Assembly: GCA_965217775.1 (NCBI GenBank)
Contig: CBDCJH010000002.1
Location: forward strand, 2,368,001 to 2,432,000
Length of the DNA stretch: 64,000 bases
Direction of reading: 5' to 3'
DNA from: Acidobacteriota bacterium
GTDB taxonomy: Bacteria; Acidobacteriota; UBA6911; RPQK01; JAJDTT01
The notes under the pieces are model-generated. The model was not told the DNA's origin, ran no database searches, and saw only the letters and a list, made by a program, of their open reading frames with translations. The position numbers were made by a program, and so were the translations under genes. Numbering within the stretch: the first letter of the stretch is position 1; every line of letters begins with the position of its first letter. Below, in pieces: positions 39,756 to 57,995 of the stretch.

Positions 39756-40495
39756 TGGTTCAGGTGGCTGAAGCGCAGCAGAATCCCCCCCACACGCCTC
39801 AGGCGAACGGGGACAGTCTCCTTTCTCTGGAAAATGTCTGGAAGATCTACGATCTGGGAGAAGTCCAGGTCGAGGCTCTGAGAGGAGTCTCCCTGGAGGT
39901 GGTCCCAGGCGAGTTCGTGGCCGTCATGGGGGCCTCGGGATCGGGCAAGTCGACTCTTCTGAACCTGCTGGGGTGCCTGGACCGGCCGACCCGGGGACGG
40001 TATCGGCTGGACGGGATCGACGTCTCCACCTTCTCGGCGTCCCAGCGGGCGGACATCCGGAACCAGAAGATCGGATTCATCTTTCAGAGCTTCAACCTGC
40101 TGCCCCGCACCTCCATCTGGGAGAACGTGGAAGCCCCCATGCTCTACGCCGGCGTCGCGCGCCAGGAGCGGGCTCGCAGAATCGAGGAGGCGCTGGAAGT
40201 TGTCGGGATCCCGGAGAAGGCCCAGGTCATGCCCAATCAGCTCTCGGGCGGACAGCAGCAGCGGGTCGCCATGGCCCGGGCCCTGGTCAACCGGCCGGCC
40301 ATCCTTCTGGCCGACGAGCCGACGGGCAACCTGGACTCGGCCACGTCGGAAGAGATCCTGGGTTTCCTCGATGATCTGAACCAGGAGCAGGGCATCACCC
40401 TGATCATGGTGACCCACGAGGCTTCGATCGCGGCTCATGCCAAGCGCACGATCCAGGTGCGGGACGGGCTCATCATCAGCGACACGATCCACTAG
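39755..40495 (+). CDS. ABC ATP-binding protein (MacB/LolD-like)
   Basis: GASGSGKST, LSGGQQQR, ADEPTGNLD. Confidence 0.93.
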   Translation: MVQVAEAQQNPPHTPQANGDSLLSLENVWKIYDLGEVQVEALRGVSLEVVPGEFVAVMGASGSGKSTLLNLLGCLDRPTRGRYRLDGIDVSTFSASQRADIRNQKIGFIFQSFNLLPRTSIWENVEAPMLYAGVARQERARRIEEALEVVGIPEKAQVMPNQLSGGQQQRVAMARALVNRPAILLADEPTGNLDSATSEEILGFLDDLNQEQGITLIMVTHEASIAAHAKRTIQVRDGLIISDTIH

Positions 40496-40510
40496 TCCAG
40501 GAGAATCGTC

Positions 40511-41731
40511 ATGGGTATCTGGATGATCTTGAAAATCTCCCTCAAGTCACTGGGACGGAACATGATCCGCTCCATCCTCACCATGCTGGGGATCATCATC
40601 GGCGTCGCCGCCGTCATCACCATGGTCAGCCTGGGTCAGGGGGCGCAGCGGCAGGTCCAGGAGGAGATCGCCGCCATGGGAACCAACACCCTCTGGATCC
40701 GGGCCGGGAGCCGCCGTTCCTGGGGGATCCGGAGCGGATCGGGGACCATGAACACCCTCAACGCCGCCGATTTCGATGCCATCGCCCAAGAGGTCCCCAC
40801 GGTCCAGGCTGTGAGTCCCAGCGCCTCCACCATGGCTCAGGTCGTGTTCGGCAACCAGAACTGGAACACCCGGATCGAAGGCTACAACGAGCAGTATCCG
40901 CTACTGCGCAACTGGCCCCTGACCCAGGGGAGCTTCTTCGAAGAGAGTCACGTCAAGACGGCCTCCCGGGTCGCCGTCCTGGGACAGACCGTGGTGGACG
41001 AACTCTTCGGCGGAGGCGATCCGGTGGGCCAGACCATCCGGGTCAAGAACCTCCCCTTCCAGGTGATGGGCGTGCTCAAGAAGAAGGGGGCAAACAACTG
41101 GGGCCGGGACCAGGACGACACCATCATCGTGCCTTACACCACGGTCCAGAAGAAGTTCCAGGGCGGAGTCCTCTATGTCCAGTCCGGGCTCATTTCCGCG
41201 GTGAGCGCCCGCGCCAGCTTTGCGGCCCAGGAGCAGATCACCGCGCTCCTGCGGCAGCGCCACGACCTCGGTTCAGCCCAGGCCAACGACTTCCGGGTTC
41301 GGAACCTGAGTGAGTTCGCCGAACGGGCCGAGGCCACCAACCGGATTATGACCAACTTGCTGGCCAGCATCGCCGCCGTCTCTCTGCTGGTGGGGGGCAT
41401 CGGGATCATGAACATCATGCTGGTCTCGGTGACCGAACGGACCCGGGAGATCGGGATCCGCATGGCCATCGGCGCCCGGCCCGGACACGTGAGAATCCAG
41501 TTCCTGGCCGAAGCCATCGTGCTCTGCCTGGTGGGAGGTTTCATCGGGCTCGGAATGGGACTCGGCGGATCGGTGCTGGTATCGCAGGCCATGGGATGGC
41601 CGACGCAGATCTCCCCCAACTCCATCGTGGTCTCCATCATCTTCTCGGCTGCCATCGGGGTCTTTTTCGGATATTATCCGGCCCACAAGGCGGCCCGTCT
41701 GGACCCCATCGAAGCGCTCCACTACGAGTAG
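40511..41731 (+). CDS. ABC permease (MacB/FtsX-like)
   Basis: GGIGIMNIMLVSVTERTREIGIR. Confidence 0.93.
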   Translation: MGIWMILKISLKSLGRNMIRSILTMLGIIIGVAAVITMVSLGQGAQRQVQEEIAAMGTNTLWIRAGSRRSWGIRSGSGTMNTLNAADFDAIAQEVPTVQAVSPSASTMAQVVFGNQNWNTRIEGYNEQYPLLRNWPLTQGSFFEESHVKTASRVAVLGQTVVDELFGGGDPVGQTIRVKNLPFQVMGVLKKKGANNWGRDQDDTIIVPYTTVQKKFQGGVLYVQSGLISAVSARASFAAQEQITALLRQRHDLGSAQANDFRVRNLSEFAERAEATNRIMTNLLASIAAVSLLVGGIGIMNIMLVSVTERTREIGIRMAIGARPGHVRIQFLAEAIVLCLVGGFIGLGMGLGGSVLVSQAMGWPTQISPNSIVVSIIFSAAIGVFFGYYPAHKAARLDPIEALHYE

Positions 41732-41768
41732 GCTTCTCGCGGGTCCGGACGAGTGATCGGGGGCACGG

Positions 41769-43544
41769 ATGGACCAGAGCAGCAACTCGACTCGAACCCT
41801 CATCGTCCGGCTGTTCCATCTGGCCGTGGAGAGCCGGAGACTGCTGGTCTTTTCGCTCCTGTGCGGACTCCTCTTCTCGCTGGTCGGACTCTTCCCGCCC
41901 CTGGTCCTGAGACGGCTGATCCAGTTGCTTCAGGAAGGGAGCCTGGCCGGGTCCACGCTGATCCGGATGGCCCTCACCCTGGCCGGACTCTTTCTCCTGC
42001 GCGGGGTCTTCCGTTACGGCTACGGAGTCTTCTCCCACGTGGCCGCCTACCGCACGCTGCACAATCTCCTGGGCCGCACCTATGCCCGGGTTCAGGCCCT
42101 TCCCCCCGGAGCCTACACCCACCGCCGCAGCGGCGCCCTCATGTCCCGGACCGTCAACGACGTGGAGGTCATCGAGGACTTCCTGGCCCACGGGGTGCCG
42201 GAGATCTTCCTGGCGGCGGTGATGCCGGTAGCCATGCTCCTGATCCTCTTCAACATCCACTTCGAGCTGGCCCTCATCGTCACCCTGCCGTTGCCGTTGA
42301 TCGCCTGGCTGGTCTACCGCCTCTCGGGTCGGACCAGTCGAGCCTGGAGAAAGACCCGGGGGCGCCGGGCCGACCTGGTGGCCGAGATTCTGGACCGGAT
42401 CGGCGGGCACTCGGTGATCAAGTCCTTCGTCCGGGAAGAATCCGAGCTGCAGCGGGTCCGGCAGGCCAGCGCCCGCTATCGCGACAGCATCGAGAGAGCC
42501 AACCGCTGGTCGCTGATCCCGGCGGGAGTGGTCGAATTCGCGGGCGGCCTGGCCTACCTCCTGGTCGTCGCCGCGGGAGGACATCTGGCCCTGGGCGGAG
42601 AGGTGGCCCTGGCCGACCTGGTGGTCTTCATCCTCTACCTGGGACAGATCTTCCAGCCCCTGTTGCGGCTGGCCAACCTGAACGACGTCATCCAGAAAGC
42701 GGCGGCCTCGGCCCGTCGAGTATTCGAGCTCCTGGAGCTGCCGGTGGAGTCGCAGGTGGCCGGCCTGGTCGCCATTCCCAGCAACCTCCGATGGTCGGTG
42801 GAATTGGACCGGGTGACCTTCGGCTACGCGCCCGAGATTCCCGTCCTTCGGGACGTGAGTTTCCGGGCCGACGCCGGCGAGGTTCTGGCCCTGGTCGGTC
42901 CCACCGGCGCCGGCAAGACCACCTCCTGCAACCTGGTTCCCAGGTTCTACGAACCCCAGTTCGGAGCGGTCAGAATCGGCGGGATCGACGCGCGGAAGCT
43001 CGCACTGGGTCCATTGCGCCGGAGCGTGGCCCACGTCATGCAGGACGTGTATCTCTTCCACGCCACGATCCGGGAGAACATCCTGGTGGGCAACCCCGAG
43101 GCCAGCGAAGCGCAGATCCGTGAGGCCGCCCAGGCCGCCAACGCCGAGGAATTCATCCTCTCCCTGCCCCAGGGCTACGACACCATGGTGGGCGAAAGAG
43201 GGGCGCGCCTGTCGGGAGGCGAGAAACAGCGGATCTCCATCGCCCGCGCCCTCCTCAAGGACGCGCCCATCCTGATCCTGGACGAAGCCACCTCCAGCGT
43301 GGACACCGAGTCGGAGGTGGAGATCCGGGAAGCCATCACGCGCCTGACCCGGGACCGGACGGTCCTGGTCATCGCGCACCGTCTCTTCACCGTCCGCAAC
43401 GCCGACCGGATCGTGGTGCTCCAGGAGGGACGGGTCGTGGAAACGGGAATCCACTCGCGGCTGATCCGCACCGGAGGCCTCTACGATCGTCTCTGGACGG
43501 CCCAGGACACGTCACGTCACTGGCAGGTGAGAACGACGGCGTAG
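41769..43544 (+). CDS. ABC exporter, fused TMD-NBD
   Basis: TM region followed by GPTGAGKT, LSGGEKQR, LDEATS. Confidence 0.92.
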   Translation: MDQSSNSTRTLIVRLFHLAVESRRLLVFSLLCGLLFSLVGLFPPLVLRRLIQLLQEGSLAGSTLIRMALTLAGLFLLRGVFRYGYGVFSHVAAYRTLHNLLGRTYARVQALPPGAYTHRRSGALMSRTVNDVEVIEDFLAHGVPEIFLAAVMPVAMLLILFNIHFELALIVTLPLPLIAWLVYRLSGRTSRAWRKTRGRRADLVAEILDRIGGHSVIKSFVREESELQRVRQASARYRDSIERANRWSLIPAGVVEFAGGLAYLLVVAAGGHLALGGEVALADLVVFILYLGQIFQPLLRLANLNDVIQKAAASARRVFELLELPVESQVAGLVAIPSNLRWSVELDRVTFGYAPEIPVLRDVSFRADAGEVLALVGPTGAGKTTSCNLVPRFYEPQFGAVRIGGIDARKLALGPLRRSVAHVMQDVYLFHATIRENILVGNPEASEAQIREAAQAANAEEFILSLPQGYDTMVGERGARLSGGEKQRISIARALLKDAPILILDEATSSVDTESEVEIREAITRLTRDRTVLVIAHRLFTVRNADRIVVLQEGRVVETGIHSRLIRTGGLYDRLWTAQDTSRHWQVRTTA

Positions 43545-43655
43545 GGGGCAGCCGGCAACGCTCTCACCCCATTCGCCAGTCATACACCACCAGCGGTACT
43601 CAGACTATCGGCTTCGGTGGCATCGCACGACGAAGGGGCAGGTGCTGACCGGAAG

Positions 43656-43838
43656 TCACGACTTCGTTTGGCGCGTGTAGCCTTCGAAGAGACCTTCCAG
43701 CCTGGCCATGCGATCCGTGAACGCAACTTCGAGCCGGGTGACGCGGTCTCCGACTCGGTCGATCCGCTTCATCATGAACAGGCCCAAAGTCACACTTATT
43801 CCTGCCAATCCAAGGATTCCAATCAGTTCTGGGCTCAT
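43656..43838 (-). CDS. Small membrane-anchored coiled-coil protein
   Basis: GGAGG RBS; MSPELIGILGLAG TM segment, then RMARLEG. Confidence 0.6.
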   Translation of the reverse strand: MSPELIGILGLAGISVTLGLFMMKRIDRVGDRVTRLEVAFTDRMARLEGLFEGYTRQTKS

Positions 43839-44482
43839 AGGAGTAACCTCCATCGCAGAACAATGGCGGGACCTTGAGTATAACAAGGTCGTTTCGAGGA
43901 GCTGGATGTCTATTCCCAGTGACCGTAGCTCAACAGTCCGTGGTGAAAGTCTCGCGAGCACCGAGACCGTTCCTGCGCCCGCCGGACAAGGCGCGATGAG
44001 GGAGCATACCGGGAGTATGTGACCGAGTCGCAACGCAGTCCGCCTGACTGATTCTATAAATTCTGTAAACCATTCAACATAAACGAGTTACGAATTCTAC
44101 GGCGACGCTCTTCCCCCCATTCTTTCCACCTGAACGAAACGGATGCCCTTGGCCTTTCGTGGCCGTGAATGGACCGTGTCAGCCCCGGATCGCCATGCGC
44201 CCACGCCCCCGAGGCCTGACATTTTTGACGGCCACTTTCCTGCACTTTTGCATGGTCGGCAACAAGACCCCGATGTCGCACGATAATTCCCAGCGAACGT
44301 CCTAAATTTTTGGGGTTTATAGGGATGACGAGAGATCCCTGAAAACCTCTCCCGGTGGAACCCGACAGACACTCCTGCAACACCTCTAGAAGTTTCGTCG
44401 CTGACTTCCGAGTGAACAAGTGATCTATCACATGCGGAGTACTCGAGGGACCTATAGACTTGAATACCCCCTGAATGGACAG

Positions 44483-45451
44483 CTATTCCTGATACTCATA
44501 CTGGGGGTTTTCAACGCGTTCGAATTCGTTCGTCCTGAGATTGTAGCGTCGGCAGAAAGCCGTTGTGCGGATTGCCCCCTGCCGGTCCCGGTACTGGATC
44601 GCCCCAAGGAGGTACGCGGCAGATACACCCTGCGAAAGGAGGGCGAGATCGCGGCCATCGGTCGGTTCGGGTGTAAAGGCAATCCTGATGGTTCGACCGA
44701 CCCGAATTTCGTTAACCCGCGTCTTTTTCCACGGAGGGTCCATCACGGCCAGCTCCACATGGCGGGTGATCCTACAACACATGTAGGCGCAGAGTGGTTT
44801 GCCAGGAAGACCGCCGCTGTTGGCCACTTCAAAATAGCCTCCGCAGTTCCCCTGGAGCATGTTCTTGAGTTCGCTTGGAGCCAATATCTGGTCTTCTCGT
44901 GGGACCCATTTATGGGTAGTAATCTCGTCTCGACCGAGAACGATGTTCCTCAGTTCGAAGACGGGCCGGTGATCAGCCCTGAACCGCTCCGACTGAATCG
45001 AGAACAGTTGCGACTGAATCGCAAACAGTCGCTCGGAGACCTCGTGCTGGCGTTCCGAAAGGGTGTTGCGTTGCTTGGCGGCCTGCGCTTGCTCCCAAGT
45101 GAAATAGACCAGGGCCAGGGTTACGAGCACCAAGGCCACGGAGGGGAGGCTGCCGACGAGTTCCGTAAACCACTCATAACCCTTTGGATTAGAGGTCTGA
45201 TCTGGCTGGTCGCGATGATCCACTGCTACGCCAACGATAGAATTGTCAATTGGTTGCGCCGCAGATACGGTATCAGTCGAACCACGGCTCGAAGGCTCAA
45301 TAAGCTCGCGTACCCTCCCGTCCCGATTAGGGGCATTCTGTTTTTGCTTACTCTCTGGCCCGCCACTTGGACTTGGTGGATTTGAGGGCTCCTGGAATCC
45401 CAGGGAAAGCAGCACCAGGAAACACAGGGATGAGGCTGGATTGTGATTCAT
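44483..45451 (-). CDS. Hypothetical membrane protein
   Basis: GAGAGG RBS, N-terminal hydrophobic stretch, TM helix, then soluble domain. Confidence 0.6.
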   Translation of the reverse strand: MNHNPASSLCFLVLLSLGFQEPSNPPSPSGGPESKQKQNAPNRDGRVRELIEPSSRGSTDTVSAAQPIDNSIVGVAVDHRDQPDQTSNPKGYEWFTELVGSLPSVALVLVTLALVYFTWEQAQAAKQRNTLSERQHEVSERLFAIQSQLFSIQSERFRADHRPVFELRNIVLGRDEITTHKWVPREDQILAPSELKNMLQGNCGGYFEVANSGGLPGKPLCAYMCCRITRHVELAVMDPPWKKTRVNEIRVGRTIRIAFTPEPTDGRDLALLSQGVSAAYLLGAIQYRDRQGAIRTTAFCRRYNLRTNEFERVENPQYEYQE

Positions 45452-45457
45452 TTCCTC

Positions 45458-45822
45458 TCACATTCCACCAGCCTTTTTAGGATGGTGGAAGTCGAGCACG
45501 TGGTCAAGCGTCAGGTGATCCTGGTCGCCAACCTTGAACCACTTTAGCAATTCGCACCTACCCGTGTTCTTCCTATGCGCCCGACCGCGGTTCTTCAAGA
45601 GGTCATTTCGGATCCTGTGCAGGTCTCCCCACAGCGATGCCTCCACACCGTGCGGCAAGGGGCTCTTTTCCCGGAGAACTCCTGTTTCTTCCGGTACTTC
45701 TCCCACGCACCGTCCACTCTGGCGATCCATCCGACGTAGGCCAACTGCACCATCCGGCCGTTGCACCCCAGTTCCGACGACCACGTAACGGGTGGATTCG
45801 GCATGGTGGAGCGTAGCTCCAT
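45458..45822 (-). pseudogene. Degraded hypothetical gene, possibly HEPN-like
   Basis: Protein-like segments in two frames (WIARVDGAWEKYRK and LWGDLHRIRNDLLKN...CELLKWF). Confidence 0.35.
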
Positions 45823-46006
45823 GGATAGCGGGGATGTAGCTGGCCGCCTCGCGGTTGCGCCACTGCCACCGGAGCGGCGATGACGCGCCGGGCCTTGAGG
45901 CCGTGGCTGTGCCCGTTGACGTCCGCAAGCCGGACCAACGGGCCGTCTGCCACGAAGTGCACCGCCGCCTCGATGCGTCGCTCAACCGACATCCCGTAGG
46001 GATATC

Positions 46007-46259
46007 TGGGACGGGAGCGACCCCCCACGGCGATGCGGCGCGTGTGAAAACAGCGCCTACCAAGATGCCGATCCGGGAGGCAAAAAGGAGGGGCGCTCCC
46101 ATCCACCTCCGCTTTCCCCCAACCGGCACCGCGGAGCCGAGAATATGTCTGTAACTGCATGAATGGAAAACAGATCGGGGAAAGCGTCTTTGTGAATCGA
46201 CGGGACCGCTTTTTGTGAATCCACCTGGCTGGTCCCATTCTCACTCCCGGATCGGCACG
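46007..46259. other. Conserved structured non-coding element, copy 1
   Basis: Colinear with 48361-48611; shared inverted repeats. Confidence 0.8.
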
Positions 46260-46449
46260 AGACTCCTGTTTCGCACCCCCGAACGGCGGCCCCGAAAACC
46301 CAGGCTCCGGCTACGCGTAGCCCCGGTCGATCACGGCCTGGAAGGAGTGATCTTCTGCGGCCGGGTCCAACTCCTCGTCCAGACTGACTCGAAGCAGCGT
46401 CATCGTTCGGGCGCGTCACAGCGCCTCTTGCCTCCTAGAGAAACACCTA

Positions 46450-46690
46450 GGACGAGACCCGGCGTCTACATTTGCGTGCCAAGCTGGACGCCGTGTTCTT
46501 CCATCTCTACGGCGTTACAGACCGTCAGGATGTCCGCTACGTCTATTCGACGTTTCCCATCGTGAAACACCAGGAAACAGGAGCTTATGGGTACTACAGT
46601 TCCCGCGATCTCTGTCTCGCCTGGATGAACGTGCTGGCGGCAGGCAAGCCCGGTGCGGAGATCAATTTGGGGTGGCAAGCAGAAATGTAA
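46450..46690 (+). pseudogene. C-terminal fragment of a type IIG-like R-M enzyme
   Basis: RRLHLRAKLDAVFFHLYG...YVYSTFPIVK...RDLCLAWM. Confidence 0.65.
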
Positions 46691-46828
46691 CTATACGGTA
46701 GCTCCTACCAGGGATCATGAGTACACCGAGTCACGTCCAGCACCGAGATGACTTGCTTCCCACCGCAGTAGCGCCGAACCGTTCCGCGAAAACGTAGGGT
46801 AGTGCTTGAGGTCGATGAGGCTGGCCAC

Positions 46829-47977
46829 TCATTCTTCCAGCTCGTGGAACGCCTCCTTTACCACCGCCCTCCATGTTGTTTCGCGATGTTCTGTGGTGCA
46901 AGTGATCTTGAGTTGTGCGGGTTGCGGTGGGTGGACGTTGTCGGCCGTAATCTTCCCGTCGAGAACGATGTCCCCTGATGCGTGCGATCCAAGGTAGAGC
47001 AAACTGTCGATCCATTTCGTTTCATTGGGTTGGATCTTTTCGGTCCGGATCTTGACAAGGCAGCAATCCGGGAGTTTCTGGACGGTTATGTCGTCGTCAC
47101 CTTTCATGCGGAAACTCGAAAGGCTGAAAACGGGGAAAAGGTCTCTACGGGGTTCCGGTTTCTTTGGCCAGGAGTGCTCGTCGAAGAGGACAGCATAGGG
47201 TGATTGAACGGTGAGTTCTACGCGCACGTCCATGGCGACGACGGATCCAGAGTTGATGATAGCGAATTGCAGTGTGGTACAGAGATGTTTTGCCCAAACG
47301 TAGGCGGCTAGCTCCCGCAGGAAGTCGGTGTTTATGCGGCGGAACTGCAGCGTGGGGATAGGGGGACTGGGCTCCTTGTAATCGGGGATTGCTTCAGAGT
47401 CCCTTATGTCAAGACAGGTGCCGTGAATTGCTTGTGTGTCCCCGGTGAGGCGACGCTGCGTCGTGTCAGCGAACAGTAGCTCGAGATGCGGCGACGCTTG
47501 TGGGATGGGCGCGGCTCCCATGCGTGCGATCTCATCTGGTAGCGCAACCGCCGTGGAGCTGCCACGGCGCAGGTAGACGGTATTTTCAGAAAGCTTGCCG
47601 AACGACTTTATGATGAACCGGGGGCGGTCTTGGACCGGAATGTGGAGGACGCCGACATTTATTCCCTCTAGTCGTGTCGCCCTATAGGAGAAGGTGACTG
47701 GCTGGTTCGTCTTGCTGTTGACGAGTTGCTGGAGTTTGGCGTCCTCGAGGTGGCCGGTAATCCCGACTACCGTCGCGCGGCCGTTGGGGTTCTCTTTGAC
47801 GCCAATGAGGATGTAGGCATCTGCGTGACGCCAAGCGTTGGTGAACGCCAGGATATCCTTGATCAGTTCTCCCTTTTGCTCATTGGTGGCAAGGTCATAC
47901 TGCTGACTCTTGAAGTCCAATGTCGAGCCTTCATCCTCATAGAGCAGGCTTGTGAAGAAGCGGTCATCGTCACTCAT
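46829..47977 (-). CDS. Schlafen/AlbA_2 domain protein with beta-rich C-terminal domain
   Basis: EGSTLDFKS...KDILAFTN...ILIGV...YLRRGSST. Confidence 0.85.
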   Translation of the reverse strand: MSDDDRFFTSLLYEDEGSTLDFKSQQYDLATNEQKGELIKDILAFTNAWRHADAYILIGVKENPNGRATVVGITGHLEDAKLQQLVNSKTNQPVTFSYRATRLEGINVGVLHIPVQDRPRFIIKSFGKLSENTVYLRRGSSTAVALPDEIARMGAAPIPQASPHLELLFADTTQRRLTGDTQAIHGTCLDIRDSEAIPDYKEPSPPIPTLQFRRINTDFLRELAAYVWAKHLCTTLQFAIINSGSVVAMDVRVELTVQSPYAVLFDEHSWPKKPEPRRDLFPVFSLSSFRMKGDDDITVQKLPDCCLVKIRTEKIQPNETKWIDSLLYLGSHASGDIVLDGKITADNVHPPQPAQLKITCTTEHRETTWRAVVKEAFHELEE

Positions 47978-48360
47978 AGGTTTCTCCAGAGTACGGCTCT
48001 TGACGCATTCTGTTGAGCTTGTGACGGGCGGGGGCAGCGGCCAAGTTGAAATACAACATAAGAGCCGCCGTGCTTCCCGTCAGCCGCCGCCAGCTCCCAT
48101 GCTGGTCCGTTTCGCCAGTTCAATCCAAGGATCTGGTGACGCCAGCGCCGTCTGTAGGATGTCTCAGAAAAGGAGCGTTTTACGAAAGGCTTTCCAGAGG
48201 CCCGGTCACGGGACGAAACCTCGGTCAAAACCGTCCTGTTTTGTTGTCTCACTACTCTGTGTATCATACTGCCGTCCTTGGCCGTTTCTCCGCCGCCCGG
48301 CTTCACTGTCCCCAGCGCCGTCTTCTTGGGCACCTTGATGGCCTTCCCGCCAGGGATTGA

Positions 48361-48611
48361 TGGGACGGGAGCGACCCTCCCGGGCGATGTGGCGTGTGAA
48401 AACAACGCCGCCCGCCGATGCCGATCCGGGAGGCAAAAAGGGGGGGTCGCTCCCGTCCACCTCCGATTTCCCCGATAGGCACGGCGGACCCGAAAATATG
48501 GCCGTAACTGCATGAGCGAAAAAGAGATCGGGGAAATCGCGCGTGTAAGTCGACAGGTCCCTGCGGTGTAAGTTGCCCTTATTGTCTCACTTACGCTCCC
48601 CGATCGGCACG
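48361..48611. other. Conserved structured non-coding element, copy 2
   Basis: Colinear with 46007-46259; about 90 bp downstream of the integrase stop. Confidence 0.8.
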
Positions 48612-48701
48612 GAACCCCACTTTTCATCGGTCAAAATCGATCTTCCGGAAGCTGGCTTGAACGCCATATCACGAAGCCTGTCGGGAGGACGACCCGGCGG
48701 A

Positions 48702-49922
48702 TCAACGGAGCCGACCGGACGCCGGTTGCCGACTCTCGCCAGCCAGATAGCTAGCCCATTCGTCCATGAGCCGGCGCCGCCGCTCGAACAGGTCCGTGCG
48801 CCGGTATGCGGCCTCGATCGGGTTGCGGACCTTGTGCGCCAAAGCCGCCTCCTCCACCTCGCGCGGATGATCCGTCTCCTCGGCCGCCCAGTCCCGGAAA
48901 CTCGACCGGAAGCCGTGCGGCACGGCTGCGATCTTCAACGTCCGGAGCAGACCCGCCATCGCCGTGCTCCCGAGTGGCTTTCCGTGCATGCTCGGAAAAA
49001 CGAGGGGGCCGCCACCGAGTGCCCGCGCCTGATCGAGGATCTCCAACGCACGGCGACTGAGCGGCACCCGGTGCTCCCGATTCCCCTTCGTGCGTCCGGC
49101 GGGGATGGTCCACACTCCCTCGTCCCGGCCGATCTCCGTCCACGCGGCCCCACGGACCTCGCTGGAGCGTGTCGCCGTCAGCACCAGGAACTCGAACGCC
49201 AGCTTCACCACCGGTCGCGCGTTCGACGTTCTCACCGTCCGGAGCGCGGACGCCACTTCGCCATGAGGCAACGCCCGCATGTGACGCACAACCTTCCCCT
49301 GCGCGCCGAGCACCGGACCGATCCGGTCGCACGGGTTGTCGGGCCGAAGATCCATCGCCACGGCCCATTCCAACACCGCGCGGATGCGCTGGCGCAGCTT
49401 CCGGGCCGTGGATGCCTTCTCGTGCCAGATCGGAGCGAGGATTCCGATCACGTCGGCGCTCGTCACCTCCGCAATCGGCATCTTCCCGATGTAAGGGAAG
49501 GCGTGGTGCTCCAGGCTCGCCAGCCAGAGCTGTGCATGCCGGGCGGAGCGCCAGCCCGGCCGCAACTGCTTCCAGACCGTCCGGGTGGCGTCCGCGAAGG
49601 TGGGCATCGACTCGGACCTCCGCTTCTCGGCCCGGGGGTCGCCTCCGTCGCGGGCCAGCTTCCGGTTGGCGAACGCCTTCTCACGCGCTTCTTTGAGCGA
49701 GACCAGGGGGAATCCGCCGAGCCCGAGCTCGGTTCGGCGGCCACGGATGGTGAGGCGCTGGATCCAGCCCCGGCTCCCTGTTAGCCTGACGTCGAGATAG
49801 AGGCCCTGGCCGTCGCAGTAGCGTCCGGCCTGGCTCACGTTGCGGACAAAGGCCGGTGTCAGGACATTGTGGGGATGCTGGCCACGGGGCTTGCGTTGTG
49901 GAGGTCGTTTCGAGAGTGTCAT
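48702..49922 (-). CDS. P4-like tyrosine integrase with arm-binding domain
   Basis: DGQGLYL...LGLG.FP.VSL.EAR; catalytic R, K, HGFR, LAH and AY intact. Confidence 0.93.
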   Translation of the reverse strand: MTLSKRPPQRKPRGQHPHNVLTPAFVRNVSQAGRYCDGQGLYLDVRLTGSRGWIQRLTIRGRRTELGLGGFPLVSLKEAREKAFANRKLARDGGDPRAEKRRSESMPTFADATRTVWKQLRPGWRSARHAQLWLASLEHHAFPYIGKMPIAEVTSADVIGILAPIWHEKASTARKLRQRIRAVLEWAVAMDLRPDNPCDRIGPVLGAQGKVVRHMRALPHGEVASALRTVRTSNARPVVKLAFEFLVLTATRSSEVRGAAWTEIGRDEGVWTIPAGRTKGNREHRVPLSRRALEILDQARALGGGPLVFPSMHGKPLGSTAMAGLLRTLKIAAVPHGFRSSFRDWAAEETDHPREVEEAALAHKVRNPIEAAYRRTDLFERRRRLMDEWASYLAGESRQPASGRLR

Positions 49923-50090
49923 ACCTACCACTATACCCCCCAACCAAATGCGGGATGCAAGGGGATGAAGCGGAACGGTATCGGACAACGACGGACGTCA
50001 GATCTCCTGATAAATCAATGAAAATGAGGTACTTATGTACATTGCTGGACATATCTGGACGATATGTCTGTCTCTCACAACGCATCCCGC
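49923..50090 (-). other. Putative att region of the integrase island
   Basis: GGGGGGTAT/GTAGGTAT arm-like repeats and an AT-rich IHF-like tract upstream of the integrase; no tRNA seen. Confidence 0.45.
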
Positions 50091-50175
50091 CGGGATGCAG
50101 GGACGGTCGAATGCCGTGACGACTTTTGCCACGGGCTGTCAAGCCCAGACACCTCGCACCCCGTGGCCGTCAATC

Positions 50176-52548
50176 TCACTCCGACTCGGCCACCGCGTCG
50201 TGCAACCGCTCCAATTCGGCCGCGCAGACTTCCGTCCACTCCCCGCAGGGCGCCGAACGGATCAACGAACGCATCCAGGAGACGTCCTGGCCATACTCGT
50301 TGAGCCGGCGCCCGTAGCTCGCCCGGTTCTTGGTGCAGACCAGGGTGTAGGGACTGCCCTTTCGTTGGGTCACGTGGGACATGTCGAGCCGGTGGCCGTC
50401 AATGATCCGGTGCAGGTGCTTGCGCAGATCCTTCCGTAGCTTGAAACGCTCCGTTTTGGCGACTGGGTTCCTGCAGAAGGCCCGAAGCTTGGCGCAGTGC
50501 CGGCAATCGCAGTCGATCTCGGTCGAGATCGTCCAATCCCGAGGCACCTCGGGAGCTGTCGCGCTACGGCGCAGCAGGAAACCCACGGCATGGCGCCACA
50601 ACAGGGCGTAGGCGCCGGTCCCTGGGATGCCTTCCTGGCCGCGGAGTTGGTCCAGAGCCGCCGGAACCATCCGGTCCGGTGTGATGAGCTGCGGGTGATC
50701 AGCGATGGCGACAGCAGCCGTCTTGGCGTCTTCCGCCAATCCGAATCGCGAAGCCAGCCCGAAGAGGTCACGGATCGCTCCATGGTCGATGGATTTCCGC
50801 TCCCGTTCCCGATATTCCCACGTCTCCTCATCGTCCCACGCTTCCTCTGCGGCCCACGTTGTCCGGTCAGCCTCCACCGGCCGCTTCACCCGCTTCAAGA
50901 CGGCGGGCCAGTCGGCAAGAGCCTGCCTGGCCCCGCCCCGGAGGGCGCCGCTCCAAGCGGGACCCGCCGTCTCACCGACGCGCAGCAGCAGCAGCAGCGT
51001 GTCGCCGGTCCGGTATGGCAACTGAGCTTTGACGAATTCGACCAGGAACTTCCCGCCGGCGTCCGGACCGATCCCAACCAACGCCGCCAGCAGATCATCG
51101 TTTTCGCTGCCGTCATACCTGTGAACCACGACCTGCCGAAGGAAGTGGGCGGTGCGGGTTTCGTCTCCGATCGCAGCCAGCAGGCGAAGCATCCCGGAGC
51201 GGGCCTCTGCGTCGGAGACGTACCGTTCAGTGGGCCAGATTTCGGTCAACCGGCCCACCAGATCGCCGATGCTTTGGCCGGGAACCAAGTCCTCACGTTG
51301 GAATTGCTCGGCCACCCAAGCCACGCCGCGGTCGATGCCGCCACTACTGATGACGTCGAGCGTCTTCGGCCGTGGCCAGATCACGAAGGCAGCACGGCGA
51401 TAGAACTGCTCGATGGTCATGCCCGCGTTGCCCGTCGCTTCATGCACCCTCTGGTCGTCCGGTTCGGCGGCGTCGAGCGCTCCTTCCGGCAAAAGTTCTT
51501 GCCCCAGCAATGGGATCTTTCCAAAAGGCGGGCGGCCTCCGTCCCGGTCCATCCAGCCGTCGAGCGATCGCGTACGGTCGAGCAACTCGTCCATCTCCAG
51601 GGGATCGGAGTCCATCTCATCCCAGTCCTCTTCAACGTAGTAAAGAACGGGGATGCCTGCTTCCCTGACGTGTACGATCGCCAAGTACAATTCCCACTCG
51701 GCCAGATCTGCCGCCGCCTTCAGAACTCGCGCCACGGACGCGTCGGCATTCTTCAAGGCGTCGAAAGAGAGTCCGCTCTCGCTGTAGTCATGCTCCATCA
51801 GCCAGACGTACTTGTCGGGCGGGTGATCGCCGTCACGCCAGTCGATGAGAAAATCGGCGACACTCTCGACCCGATCCGAATAGTCGGGAGCGAGCCGGGG
51901 CGTTTCGGTGTCTCCGGGGCGAAGACAGACGTTGAAAACCAGCGACAGACGATGGCCGTGACGGATCGGCAGTGTTTCGTGGGAACAGTCGGCGTAGAAC
52001 GCAGCGAACGCCAGTTCGGAGGGCTCGTCCGCGTTCATGTCGAGAGTCATCTCTCGACCGCGATGGCGGACGATCAACTCGCCGCCGGCGCCGGCGGTCG
52101 GCAACGAAATCGAAAGTGTGGCTATCATGCCGTCGGCTTTCGCGGTGTCGCGGTGGGACGAAAAGAATCCTCCCGATGGGTAGACGAGCAATTTGTAGAG
52201 TTGCGCGTCCAACCGCTCGAGGGGGCAACCGAGACCGGTCGCGGTGGCGGCGAGAATCTTGGAAAACGTATCCGGCCACGCGCGGCCGCCCAGGCAAACC
52301 TGCGCCGCGTCGATCTGCCGGCAGTCGCGGACGGAGGTATCGACCAAGGTCTCCGTTCCCTTGCCGTAGGGAGCACGTTCGGCCACCTCCATCAATGCAC
52401 GAACCTGTGCGTCGGGAACCGGGAAAGAGAGCAACCCGACGCCGTCGACCTTCAGCACCGGCATTGGGATCAGCAGACGGCCATACGCGAAAAAGTCCCC
52501 CGGGCGGTCAATGGACTGCAGCAGCTTCTCGAGTGAGTTGTCGTCCAT
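50176..52548 (-). CDS. 2OG-Fe(II) oxygenase domain protein
   Basis: APYGKG, LYKLLVY..G.FF..HRD, AFYADCSHE...R.SLVFN. Confidence 0.85.
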   Translation of the reverse strand: MDDNSLEKLLQSIDRPGDFFAYGRLLIPMPVLKVDGVGLLSFPVPDAQVRALMEVAERAPYGKGTETLVDTSVRDCRQIDAAQVCLGGRAWPDTFSKILAATATGLGCPLERLDAQLYKLLVYPSGGFFSSHRDTAKADGMIATLSISLPTAGAGGELIVRHRGREMTLDMNADEPSELAFAAFYADCSHETLPIRHGHRLSLVFNVCLRPGDTETPRLAPDYSDRVESVADFLIDWRDGDHPPDKYVWLMEHDYSESGLSFDALKNADASVARVLKAAADLAEWELYLAIVHVREAGIPVLYYVEEDWDEMDSDPLEMDELLDRTRSLDGWMDRDGGRPPFGKIPLLGQELLPEGALDAAEPDDQRVHEATGNAGMTIEQFYRRAAFVIWPRPKTLDVISSGGIDRGVAWVAEQFQREDLVPGQSIGDLVGRLTEIWPTERYVSDAEARSGMLRLLAAIGDETRTAHFLRQVVVHRYDGSENDDLLAALVGIGPDAGGKFLVEFVKAQLPYRTGDTLLLLLRVGETAGPAWSGALRGGARQALADWPAVLKRVKRPVEADRTTWAAEEAWDDEETWEYRERERKSIDHGAIRDLFGLASRFGLAEDAKTAAVAIADHPQLITPDRMVPAALDQLRGQEGIPGTGAYALLWRHAVGFLLRRSATAPEVPRDWTISTEIDCDCRHCAKLRAFCRNPVAKTERFKLRKDLRKHLHRIIDGHRLDMSHVTQRKGSPYTLVCTKNRASYGRRLNEYGQDVSWMRSLIRSAPCGEWTEVCAAELERLHDAVAESE

Positions 52549-52670
52549 GTTGTAATGCGAATTCCTAACCCAGCGTAAACGGAACAAAAATTCTGCGCCG
52601 GAGCGGTACCGGAGGCTTTCCAGCCGCCGAATATTCATTGGCCGCGCCTTGCTCTGCTTTGGAACGAAGA

Positions 52671-52695
52671 GGGCGCCCACAAGGGGCGCCCCTAC
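52671..52695 (-). repeat. GTAG-family REP-like palindrome
   Basis: GTAGGGGCGCCCCTTGTGGGCGCCC; second copy at 57972. Confidence 0.75.
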
Positions 52696-52746
52696 TCTTT
52701 TTCCATTTGCGCAAGCCCGGCTCCCCGTCGTACACCTTGACGAAGG

Positions 52747-54189
52747 TTACGCCAACACACCCTTGACCACGTGGCCGTGGACGTCCGTGAGGCGGCGTTG
52801 AATGCCGTTGTGGTAGAAGGTGAGCTGCTTGTGGTCCAGCCCCAGCAGGTGAAGGATGGTGGCGTGGAAGTCGTAGATGGTGACCGGATTCTCGCCCACG
52901 TAGTAACCCACTTCGTCCGAAACGCCGTAGCTGAAGCCCTTCCGGACACCGGCGCCCGCCAGCCAACAACTGAACGCGTGCTGGTGATGGTCGCGGCCTT
53001 TGGCGCCCAGTCCCTCGGTGAACGGGGTTCGGCCGAATTCCGTCGACCACACCACGAGAGTGTCCTGTAGCATGCCCCGGTCCTTGAGATCCTTCAGGAG
53101 TCCGGCCAGGGGACGATCCATGGTCTGGGCCTGCTCGGTGTGGTTCTCCACGATGTCCTCGTGCCCGTCCCAGTTGATGCGGGGCCGGCCGAAGGCGCCC
53201 CCGCACCAGACCTGCACCACTCGGACACCCTTCTCCAACAGCCGGCGGGCCAGCAGGCAGTTCCGGCCGAAGGCGGCCGTCTTTTCCTGGTCCAGGCCGT
53301 AGAGCCGCCGCGTCTCGGACCGCTCCGTGTCCAGGTCCACGATCTCGGGAATGGTCATCTGCATGCGGGCCGCCAGCTCGTAGGACTGGATCCGCGCCTC
53401 CAGGGCGCTGTCGCCGGGATTGGTTTCCAGGTGTTCCCGGTTCATCCGAGCCAGCAGTTTCATCTCACTGGTCCGGCGCCGGGAGGAGATGGTGGGCGGG
53501 GTCGACAGGTACGGCAGGGGGTCGCCCGAATTCCGGAAGGCCACACCCTGGTGGGACGCCGGCAGGAAACCGGCCGTCCAGTTGATGGACCCTCCGGCCG
53601 GGAGGCCCCGGGGATCGGGAAGTACGATGAAACCGGGCAGGTCCCGGTTCTCGGAGCCCAGGCCGTAGGTGACCCAGGAACCCATGGAGGGGTATCCGTT
53701 GCGAGTGAATCCCGAATTCATCTGAAACGTGGCCGGAGTGTGATTGGAACTCTTGGCCTCCATGGACCGAATCACGCAGATGTCGTCGGCGCATTCCGCC
53801 AAATGGGGCAGCAGGTCGCTGACCCAGAGCCCGCTCCGGCCCCTTCTTCGGAACTCGAACGGACTCTTCATCAAGGTTCCGGGCCGTCCGAAGAAGGTGT
53901 CGACTTTTCCCTTCCCGGTCATGGTCTTCCCGTCCAGCCGGGCCAACTCGGGCTTGTAGTCGAAGGTGTCCACGTGACTGACGCCCCCCGCGGCGTAGAT
54001 GTGCAGGATCCGCTTCGCGGGACCCGGGAAATGAGGAGGGCGAGCTCCGAAGGGGGACCGGTCTACACTGCCGCGGACCTCGTCCTGGAGCAGGCAGGCC
54101 AGTGCAATCGCGCCCAGGCCGCCTCCCGAGTTCCATAGAAAGTGCCTCCTGGGCAGCAGGGGTGTCGCCGTCGGGTTGAATTTGTCCAT
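52747..54189 (-). CDS. DUF1501 protein
   Basis: PRRHFL, GGVSHVDTFDYKP, EFGRTP, GRDHH. Confidence 0.9.
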   Translation of the reverse strand: MDKFNPTATPLLPRRHFLWNSGGGLGAIALACLLQDEVRGSVDRSPFGARPPHFPGPAKRILHIYAAGGVSHVDTFDYKPELARLDGKTMTGKGKVDTFFGRPGTLMKSPFEFRRRGRSGLWVSDLLPHLAECADDICVIRSMEAKSSNHTPATFQMNSGFTRNGYPSMGSWVTYGLGSENRDLPGFIVLPDPRGLPAGGSINWTAGFLPASHQGVAFRNSGDPLPYLSTPPTISSRRRTSEMKLLARMNREHLETNPGDSALEARIQSYELAARMQMTIPEIVDLDTERSETRRLYGLDQEKTAAFGRNCLLARRLLEKGVRVVQVWCGGAFGRPRINWDGHEDIVENHTEQAQTMDRPLAGLLKDLKDRGMLQDTLVVWSTEFGRTPFTEGLGAKGRDHHQHAFSCWLAGAGVRKGFSYGVSDEVGYYVGENPVTIYDFHATILHLLGLDHKQLTFYHNGIQRRLTDVHGHVVKGVLA

Positions 54190-57920: not shown

Positions 57921-57971
57921 GAGCGGCGGCTTTCTTGCCGCCGACTCTTGATCTGGCCGCGCCCTGTAGAA

Positions 57972-57995
57972 GGCGCCCACAAGGGGCGCCCCTAT
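57972..57995 (-). repeat. REP-like palindrome, copy 2
   Basis: ATAGGGGCGCCCCTTGTGGGCGCC between convergent genes. Confidence 0.7.

Follow-up and report, generated by a model that had tools for sequence, protein, structure and literature searches.

A folding, covarying non-coding element linked to P4-type integrase genes in islands of an Acidobacteriota bacterium

The described systems that come closest to the element reported here are the attachment (att) regions of lambda- and P4-type integrases, the accretion of cis-mobilizable elements (CIMEs) as well as integrative and conjugative elements (ICEs), the attC sites of integrons, several small control RNAs, and islands with nothing but an integrase gene and an origin of transfer (oriT). 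The integron attC site is a single imperfect hairpin of 55-140 nucleotides (nt) with R''/L'' and L'/R' boxes, and the IntI-type integrase has no arm-binding N-domain. P4 CI RNA, P1/P7 c4 RNA and plasmid antisense RNAs act as immunity or control RNAs. To our knowledge, the mobile elements of the Acidobacteriota host considered here and of its group are little known. In a stretch of 64,000 nt from this bacterium (assembly GCA_965217775.1, contig CBDCJH010000002.1, positions 2,368,001 to 2,432,000 of the forward strand), referred to below as the window, two copies were found of an element of about 280 nt that was given the name EL. EL is an undescribed, covarying, integrase-linked module. The reading that we favour, tentatively and with somewhat less than even confidence, is that it is a cis-acting, recombination-associated (DNA) backbone module of small P4-type-integrase islands with defence-type cargo.

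Both window copies lie on the plus strand. EL copy 1 occupies 45990-46272 (293 bits against a covariance model, with CATCCC-GTA-GGGAT at 45990-46006 as core-like edge and GTGAAT as motif class) and EL copy 2 occupies 48344-48624 (278 bits, core-like edge TTCCC-GCCA-GGGAT at 48344-48360, motif class GTAAGT). A sequence-only reading of the window had described two colinear copies of a folded element belonging to no recognised family, and both parts of this description were borne out. The mean column identity in a MAFFT alignment is 83%, flanks included, the two copies themselves are about 81-83% alike, and the direct-repeat families D1, D2 and D4 link them at a spacing of 2353-2354 nt. Rfam 15 gave no match at E<=1 on either strand of 40000-54000, no tRNA or tmRNA was found in the window by ARAGORN, and a literature search returned no paper with a title or abstract describing such an element. 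A known RNA, or a tRNA or tmRNA acting as target gene, was rejected on these empty Rfam and ARAGORN results.

In its own genome, EL was located by BLAST at 10 places, of which 7 are full and 3 partial, and the 7 full copies were used to build a covariance model, R1. A match to EL is present in 10 of 41 genomes (its own and 40 relatives), including 7 of the 8 other species of the genus. R1 finds EL in 19 of 76 genomes of the order, spread over 7 of 32 genera, with scores of 246-282 bits in two other families (genomes G043 and G023; genomes and loci are designated here by G and L numbers), and in the genomes G004 and G005 it gives at least 24 candidates each. Altogether, 72 full-length copies were collected at E<=1e-36 from 57 sources comprising 420,064 bases. 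Across the families of the order the sequence is 70-90% conserved over about 280 nt while flanks and cargo change completely, and the unpaired blocks GCAAAAAGG, CGTAAC and AGATCGGGG are kept too; the ends read TTCCC..GGGAT and CTCCCGGATCGG. Within the order, EL has crossed family boundaries.

EL is not protein-coding, because its copies are separated throughout by insertions and deletions of 1-2 nt and the open reading frames (ORFs) spanning them have no Pfam family; no open frame is kept from copy to copy. Neither does it qualify as the end of an insertion sequence (IS) or of a miniature inverted-repeat transposable element (MITE): its two ends are not related by a terminal inverted repeat, its left flanks differ beyond about 10 nt, and the genuine MITE in this genome has another sequence.

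That EL folds, and that its folding covaries, was confirmed on the 72 copies, in which four helices bear compensatory changes. In their alignment, which was fitted to the model structure and therefore leans somewhat towards it, 88.9% of the cells hold standard pairs, against 40-54% when the partners are slid by 1-3 columns, and double changes occur in 32 pairs against 5-19 in the slid controls. The observed covariation score was reached by none of 500 shuffles. Stem A (GGGACGGGAGCGACCC... with ...GGGTCGCTCCCGTCC) has 18 pairs and is 96-97% paired, one of its pairs being C-G in 51 copies, A-U in 8 and U-A in 6. Stem C (CGnTTTCCCC with GGGGAAAnCG) has 10 pairs, is 82% paired and shows double changes in 4 of the 10. 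The inner hairpin has 7 pairs, is 90% paired and shows double changes in 6 of the 7, so that its covariation stands; its loop, given earlier as GAAA, is not a GNRA tetraloop and in most copies is AAATGTGAATT. As had been described, stem B (TGCCGATCCGGGAG with CTCCCGGATCGGCA) crosses stem A, and it reaches 14 base pairs in both window copies; family-wide, however, it is 65% and 72% paired, and it is complete only in the subfamily that holds both window copies, a local hairpin competing with it elsewhere. Likewise, GTAACTGCATGA, which had been called invariant, is identical in the two window copies but varies in the family, where only CGTAAC is nearly invariant.

A motif of 7-8 nt occurs four times in EL: M0 in the loop of the inner hairpin, M1 and M2 in direct orientation and M3 inverted. 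M1 and M3 form a helix of 7 pairs that is 93% paired and carries double changes in 5 of the 7. The motifs change together in three main classes, GTGAAT, GTAAGT and GTGCACAT, and the M1/M3 pairings seen are GTGAAT/ATTCAC, GTAAGT/ACTTAC, GTGCACAT/ATGTGCAC and GTGAGT/ACTCAC, with the further type TGGAA/TTCCA in a distant copy of G053. M0 follows the motif class in most copies.

The sequence-only reading had allowed for a structured RNA. Functional RNAs tolerate G.U far more than A.C, and over the 49 nearly always paired positions of EL there are 112 G.U against 96 A.C, a lack of strand asymmetry that argues against a classic one-strand RNA. This symmetry fits a constraint at the DNA level or folding of both strands. 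An apparent plus-strand signal in the wobble pairs was rejected, since that count (105 G.U against 38 A.C) came from a filter treating G.U as paired.

The link to the integrase was established at the window and in other genomes. The P4-type tyrosine integrase gene intA (48702-49988, minus strand, 428 amino acids (aa); Pfam Arm-DNA-bind_3 (PF13356), Phage_int_M and Phage_integrase) has its stop codon 78 nt from the 3' end of EL copy 2, in agreement with the earlier remark that one copy follows the integrase. In loci with a near-complete gene of this type, EL lies convergent and at most 92 nt from the stop codon in 20 of 31, is 0.4-1.1 kb away in 5 and was not found within the fetched stretch in 6, many of these 31 loci having been fetched because EL was present. 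When the loci fetched by integrase match alone are taken (n=20), the corresponding figures are 11, 3 and 6. Where EL adjoins the gene, the distance past the stop codon is 60-92 nt, and in G043, which belongs to another family, an integrase gene only 31% identical also adjoins EL. Islands of this family keep one EL directly beyond the 3' end of the integrase gene, and apart from that gene EL is the one conserved non-coding part of their backbone.

No remnant of an integrase gene was found by blastn or tblastn to the left of EL copy 1. Elsewhere, inner ELs often keep remnants of such genes (L018, L022, L042, L045, L050 and L051), which speaks for whole islands accreted in tandem and against the capture of single cassettes. 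No IS110 bridge-RNA, retron or reverse-transcriptase-type gene adjoins an EL; a bridge RNA of the IS110 type, a retron or an RNA linked to a reverse transcriptase was rejected on the ground that the partner gene is not beside EL, one IS110-type transposase gene lying about 6 kb off, in L012. As a separate observation, an island of about 4.2 kb in G004, with an integrase of the Int_N/SAM-like N-terminus type and an internal EL, is present in at least three places at 96-100% identity (L057 2660-6815, L058 and L059), and in L059 the integrase gene of this second type is split by an insertion of about 1.9 kb.

The island of the window sits inside a MITE of about 160 nt, which is represented in its own genome by 212 full and 68 partial BLAST copies of 94-100% identity, with terminal inverted repeats CAGTCCGTGG... 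and ...CCACGGGCTG, and which is plentiful in each of the 8 other species of the genus. P4-type integrase islands enter this MITE at position ~110 in either orientation. In the window, about 6 kb (44045-50077) interrupt it, and its halves are found at 43930-44044 (plus strand, positions 1-110, as judged from BLAST copies and from reading uninterrupted ones) and at 50092-50142; metagenome contigs show that 44000-44044 and 50078-50140 belong together. The left, attL-like junction, read directly, is CGCAACGCAGTCCGCC followed by TGACTG (44028-44050, plus strand). The right, attR-like junction, CAACGCATCCCGCC followed by GGGATGC, lies with the right part of the MITE at 50078-50142 (plus strand). The two junctions share a 14-nt imperfect direct repeat, CAACGCAGTCCGCC and CAACGCATCCCGCC, with 2 mismatches at 50078-50091.

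From left to right the inserted unit consists of the left island arm LA, a 322-aa ORF, EL copy 1, an extension of about 100 nt, an AlbA_2/Schlafen gene, EL copy 2, the integrase gene and the integrase-proximal arm X. LA (44045-44216, plus strand) has a homolog beside the left part of the MITE in G004 (L046/L077, about 86-90%). X (49989-50077, plus strand) is kept in 14 of 14 aligned integrase loci and contains CTGGAC repeats at 50045-50050 and 50055-50060. A homologous unit in G004, of the order X-intA ... EL ... EL ... LA, lies in another copy of the MITE at a different chromosomal place, with different cargo, and keeps an inner LA fragment. The composite island therefore moves as one unit, since G004 has a two-EL unit with the same ends in another MITE copy. 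A cassette system had been put forward as a possible origin of the two copies; this was not sustained, because the whole 6-kb array is a single MITE insertion with a homologous two-EL island in a MITE of G004. The most likely origin of the two window copies is that two islands accreted in tandem.

In G001 the orthologous intergenic site lacks both the MITE and an island, and in G008 it holds the whole MITE in the opposite orientation. When L075 (G008:C329:4300-5000) is set beside 43900-50150 of the window, TCAA is seen to flank both sites, which suggests independent insertions at a hot spot or an inversion. No MITE half was found directly left of EL in any locus examined, and a mini-element composed of EL, intA and X between the halves of one target was rejected for this reason.

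The proposed tie of EL to site-specific recombination is supported at its 5' edge, a core-like inverted repeat that coincides exactly with junctions between arms of sister islands. This edge reads TTCCC, a spacer of 3-4 nt, GGGAT and then GGGACGG, and it resembles the insertion core of the MITE (GCAGTCC-GCC-GGGATGCAGGGACGG at the MITE insertion point, CCTTCCC-GCC(A)-GGGATnnnTGGGACGG in EL). Among the 14 aligned X arms, 7 are joined to GGGAAGG..., which is the reverse of the left half-site of EL, 2 to the right part of the MITE and 5 to its reversed left part. The flank on the X side in L047 matches the left flank of an intact EL in L091 (90% over 122 nt), and that in L086 matches the left flank of an EL in the genome of the window at C2:1551038-1551322 (86% over 78 nt). 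In addition, LA abuts the 5' edge of EL in 4 loci of 4 genomes (L013, L038, L030 and L085), and in 5 of 72 copies the half-sites have changed together, TCCT with AGGAT. These joints suggest that sister islands use the EL edge for integration or exchange, and an integron-like use of the edge is possible. A contig joining 46026 to 48435 was discarded as unreliable, its sides being just 20-21 nt long and in repeated stem sequence. In a subset of loci, an ORF of about 57 aa with two CxxC pairs (zinc-ribbon-like, MSVPDIHEQRLEALRKQ...CPDCG..., without a Pfam match above cut-off) starts about 45 nt left of the EL edge and reads away from it, for instance in L091 at ~783-960 and in L078 at ~2102-2290, both on the minus strand.

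According to the favoured reading, a P4-type tyrosine integrase would move small islands carrying defence-type cargo, and EL would be the recombination partner or landing pad that lets such islands stack and rearrange, its folding body of about 260 nt being an accessory part of the recombination site or of its control. Two islands would have been joined in tandem, the inner integrase gene would have been lost to leave the two ELs of the window, and the composite island would then have entered the MITE as one unit. EL resembles lambda- and P4-type att regions in that it adjoins a P4-type integrase gene, has about the size of a complex attP and bears a core-like inverted repeat at which the arms of sister elements appear to be exchanged, and its arrays in one orientation with decayed inner integrase genes recall CIME/ICE accretion. 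With integrons it would share a conserved repeat that folds and delimits variable cargo, often of defence type, with copies in the same orientation (in the window and in G004) beside a tyrosine recombinase gene and with exchange, as far as the joints indicate, at the edge of the repeat. Unlike attC, EL measures about 280 nt with at least four separate helices, no R/L boxes and no strand bias, the junctions seen involve whole-island arms and inner copies often keep integrase remnants, and its recombinase has a P4-type arm-binding N-domain (Arm-DNA-bind_3).

Several observations nevertheless weigh against this reading. EL is not the attP of the window insertion, because the island ends are X and LA and both ELs are internal and whole, whereas an att region would be split on insertion. 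Helices with arms at least 60 nt apart and compensatory changes need a single-stranded state, which a plain double-stranded att arm does not offer, and ordinary att arms have no such long-range helices. The motifs are unlikely to be arm-type sites, because their classes do not track the arm-binding domain, and the reading does not account for the purpose of the body: integrase N-domains (residues 20-125) that are 96-99% identical adjoin ELs of differing class, as in L050 and L091, and over the same residues the integrases of L051 (class GTGAAT) and L096 (class GTGCAC) are 99% identical. On this indirect evidence, an identification of the motifs as arm-type integrase sites was rejected. The spacer between the half-sites varies (GCCA in 19, GCA in 12, GTA in 6), which is odd for a fixed overlap region, and in the G004 islands of about 4 kb EL lies about 1 kb from a second, unrelated tyrosine integrase. 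Finally, all junctions were deduced from paralogous comparisons and not from observed products of excision or integration. One conserved non-coding module thus marks an entire family of integrase islands by which defence-type genes are shuttled. If EL is a stacking partner, it would explain the growth of defence islands in these genomes and offer a sequence handle for finding such islands.

A possible, though rather doubtful, alternative is that EL is a regulatory RNA region, acting as the 3' untranslated region (UTR) of the integrase mRNA on the minus strand, as an antisense transcript on the plus strand, or as both. M3 could then pair with M0, M1 and M2, either as an intramolecular switch or as a class-specific immunity signal between islands. 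Four helices with compensatory changes and an M1:M3 helix that is 93% paired and exists in several covarying types are what such an RNA would show, and so is the position of M0 in a hairpin loop, following the class in most copies. EL shares with P4 CI, P1/P7 c4 and plasmid antisense RNAs its short complementary motifs, two or three direct and one inverted with one in a hairpin loop, as well as a P4-type integrase element as host, and its motif classes diversify independently of the enzymes, as immunity specificities do. The fixed place 60-92 nt past the integrase stop would suit a 3' UTR or a convergent antisense RNA, and transcription of both strands, of the kind found in antisense control regions, would lead one to expect equal G.U and A.C counts. 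On the contrary, wobble asymmetry is found on neither strand, no sigma-70-like promoter or intrinsic terminator was found at either end of EL, the sequence to its left is not kept beyond about 10 nt, and Rfam, the C4 family included, gives no match. Moreover, EL is much longer than these control RNAs, and with respect to the integrase gene it is not placed as in P4. Sequencing runs were also consulted: four hold most of the stretch, one a fifth and a sponge metatranscriptome a small share, and 4 of these 6 were examined. Three of the four behave as metagenomic DNA contigs at about 10-14x, and the sole RNA-labelled run has one contig of 199 nt (48086-48284) that lies outside EL and is uninformative on transcription.

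A further reading, to which we give a low probability, takes EL as a specificity-carrying folded nucleic acid that would govern recognition between sister islands, exchangeable motif classes setting immunity, exclusion or the choice of landing pad independently of the integrase. Combined with the core at the edge, this would make EL an integron-like accretion platform built on a P4-type integrase. The nucleic acid in question could be two RNAs, sense and antisense, or a DNA site folding on both strands. If the motif classes do encode specificity from island to island, this would amount to a new case of programmable recognition within mobile DNA. Under either this or the favoured recombination reading, EL is a well-defined element with a fold that covariation supports.

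An improbable reading makes EL a site of folded single-stranded DNA through which the excised island would be transferred, replicated or packaged, such as an oriT copied from a helper element, a single-strand origin or a pac-like site. EL is hairpin-rich, is the one conserved non-coding part of the backbone besides the integrase gene, and has defence genes next to it, features that recall the oriT-only islands (iOriT); a 2026 preprint (Ares-Arroyo et al.) describes islands with only an integrase gene and an oriT as common, with that gene and one non-coding site as sole backbone and with defence genes close by. Two kinds of partial copy are also in favour of this reading, their breaks falling at model positions 150 and 157, next to the nearly invariant CGTAAC. 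These two kinds of breakpoint, however, trace back to about two events, because four loci share one junction and two lone 5' halves share flanks: the arrangement of a full EL, a kept flank of about 130 nt and a half EL (model 157-283) is seen in L013 (8154-8680), L042, L024 and L032, with one junction, GGGG joined to CCGTAAC, shared by four genomes of which one is from another family. The oriT put forward by the sequence-only reading is also weakened by the lack of its partners, as Relaxase (PF03432), TrwC (PF08751), MobA_MobL (PF03389), T4SS-DNA_transf (PF02534) and CagE_TrbE_VirB (PF03135) were found in none of five EL-rich genomes, 4 of the 5 being single-contig assemblies and relaxase families beyond these five Pfam entries not having been searched. 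As a difference from iOriT islands, neither a relaxase of these families, a coupling protein nor VirB4 was found in the five host genomes, nor was a similar site found in the plasmid collection: no EL-like sequence occurs in 72,556 plasmid and 50,697 phage records. EL is also absent from the 144-kb second contig of its own genome.

Equally improbable is a functionless EL, a selfish or hitch-hiking repeat spread by integrase linkage only, with its inverted repeats matched by template switching in quasi-palindromes; near-equal G.U and A.C counts would follow from one arm being copied from the other as DNA, and the repeat is multi-copy and patchy, but neither its conservation across families despite changing flanks and cargo, nor the upkeep of its unpaired blocks, nor three direct motifs covarying with one inverted, of which palindrome repair gives no account, agrees with it.

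Among the other parts of the inserted unit, the gene with an AlbA_2/Schlafen domain (46829-47977, minus strand) is a cargo gene of defence-candidate type (Pfam PF04326, E 5e-14; PADLOC PDC-S50, E 2.5e-15), and the 322-aa ORF (44483-45451, minus strand), taken from the ORF list, is putative cargo without a Pfam or PADLOC family. The 3' extension of EL copy 1 (46273-46373, plus strand, about 100 nt) is of a kind kept after ELs that have no adjoining integrase gene, and 45992-46364/46373 is homologous to L012, L022, L027, L045, L053, L054 and others. Beyond it, a 72-aa ORF at 46472-46690 on the plus strand (LDAVFFHLYGV...STFPIV...) is matched by neither Pfam nor PADLOC; probably a fragment of a gene, it looks like the C-terminus of a type IIG restriction-modification or BREX methylase.

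Outside the window, L014 (C2:806000-824500 of the same genome) is a dense patch of defence and mobile-element genes around two oppositely oriented ELs, where an EcoRI-type methylase gene split by a DDE transposase gene, a GmrSD/HNH gene, a HigB-HTH pair, a PIN gene and a tyrosine integrase gene are found. In L091, near an island of G001, head-to-tail repeats of 24 nt lie at ~80-420, one frame of which reads ...GSRDRGIE.... Finally, a GC-rich palindromic repeat of 27 nt (AGAGGGCGCCCACAAGGGGCGCCCCTA, 96% alike) stands at two gene ends of the window, 52668-52694 and 57968-57994, and looks like a terminator-type hairpin.

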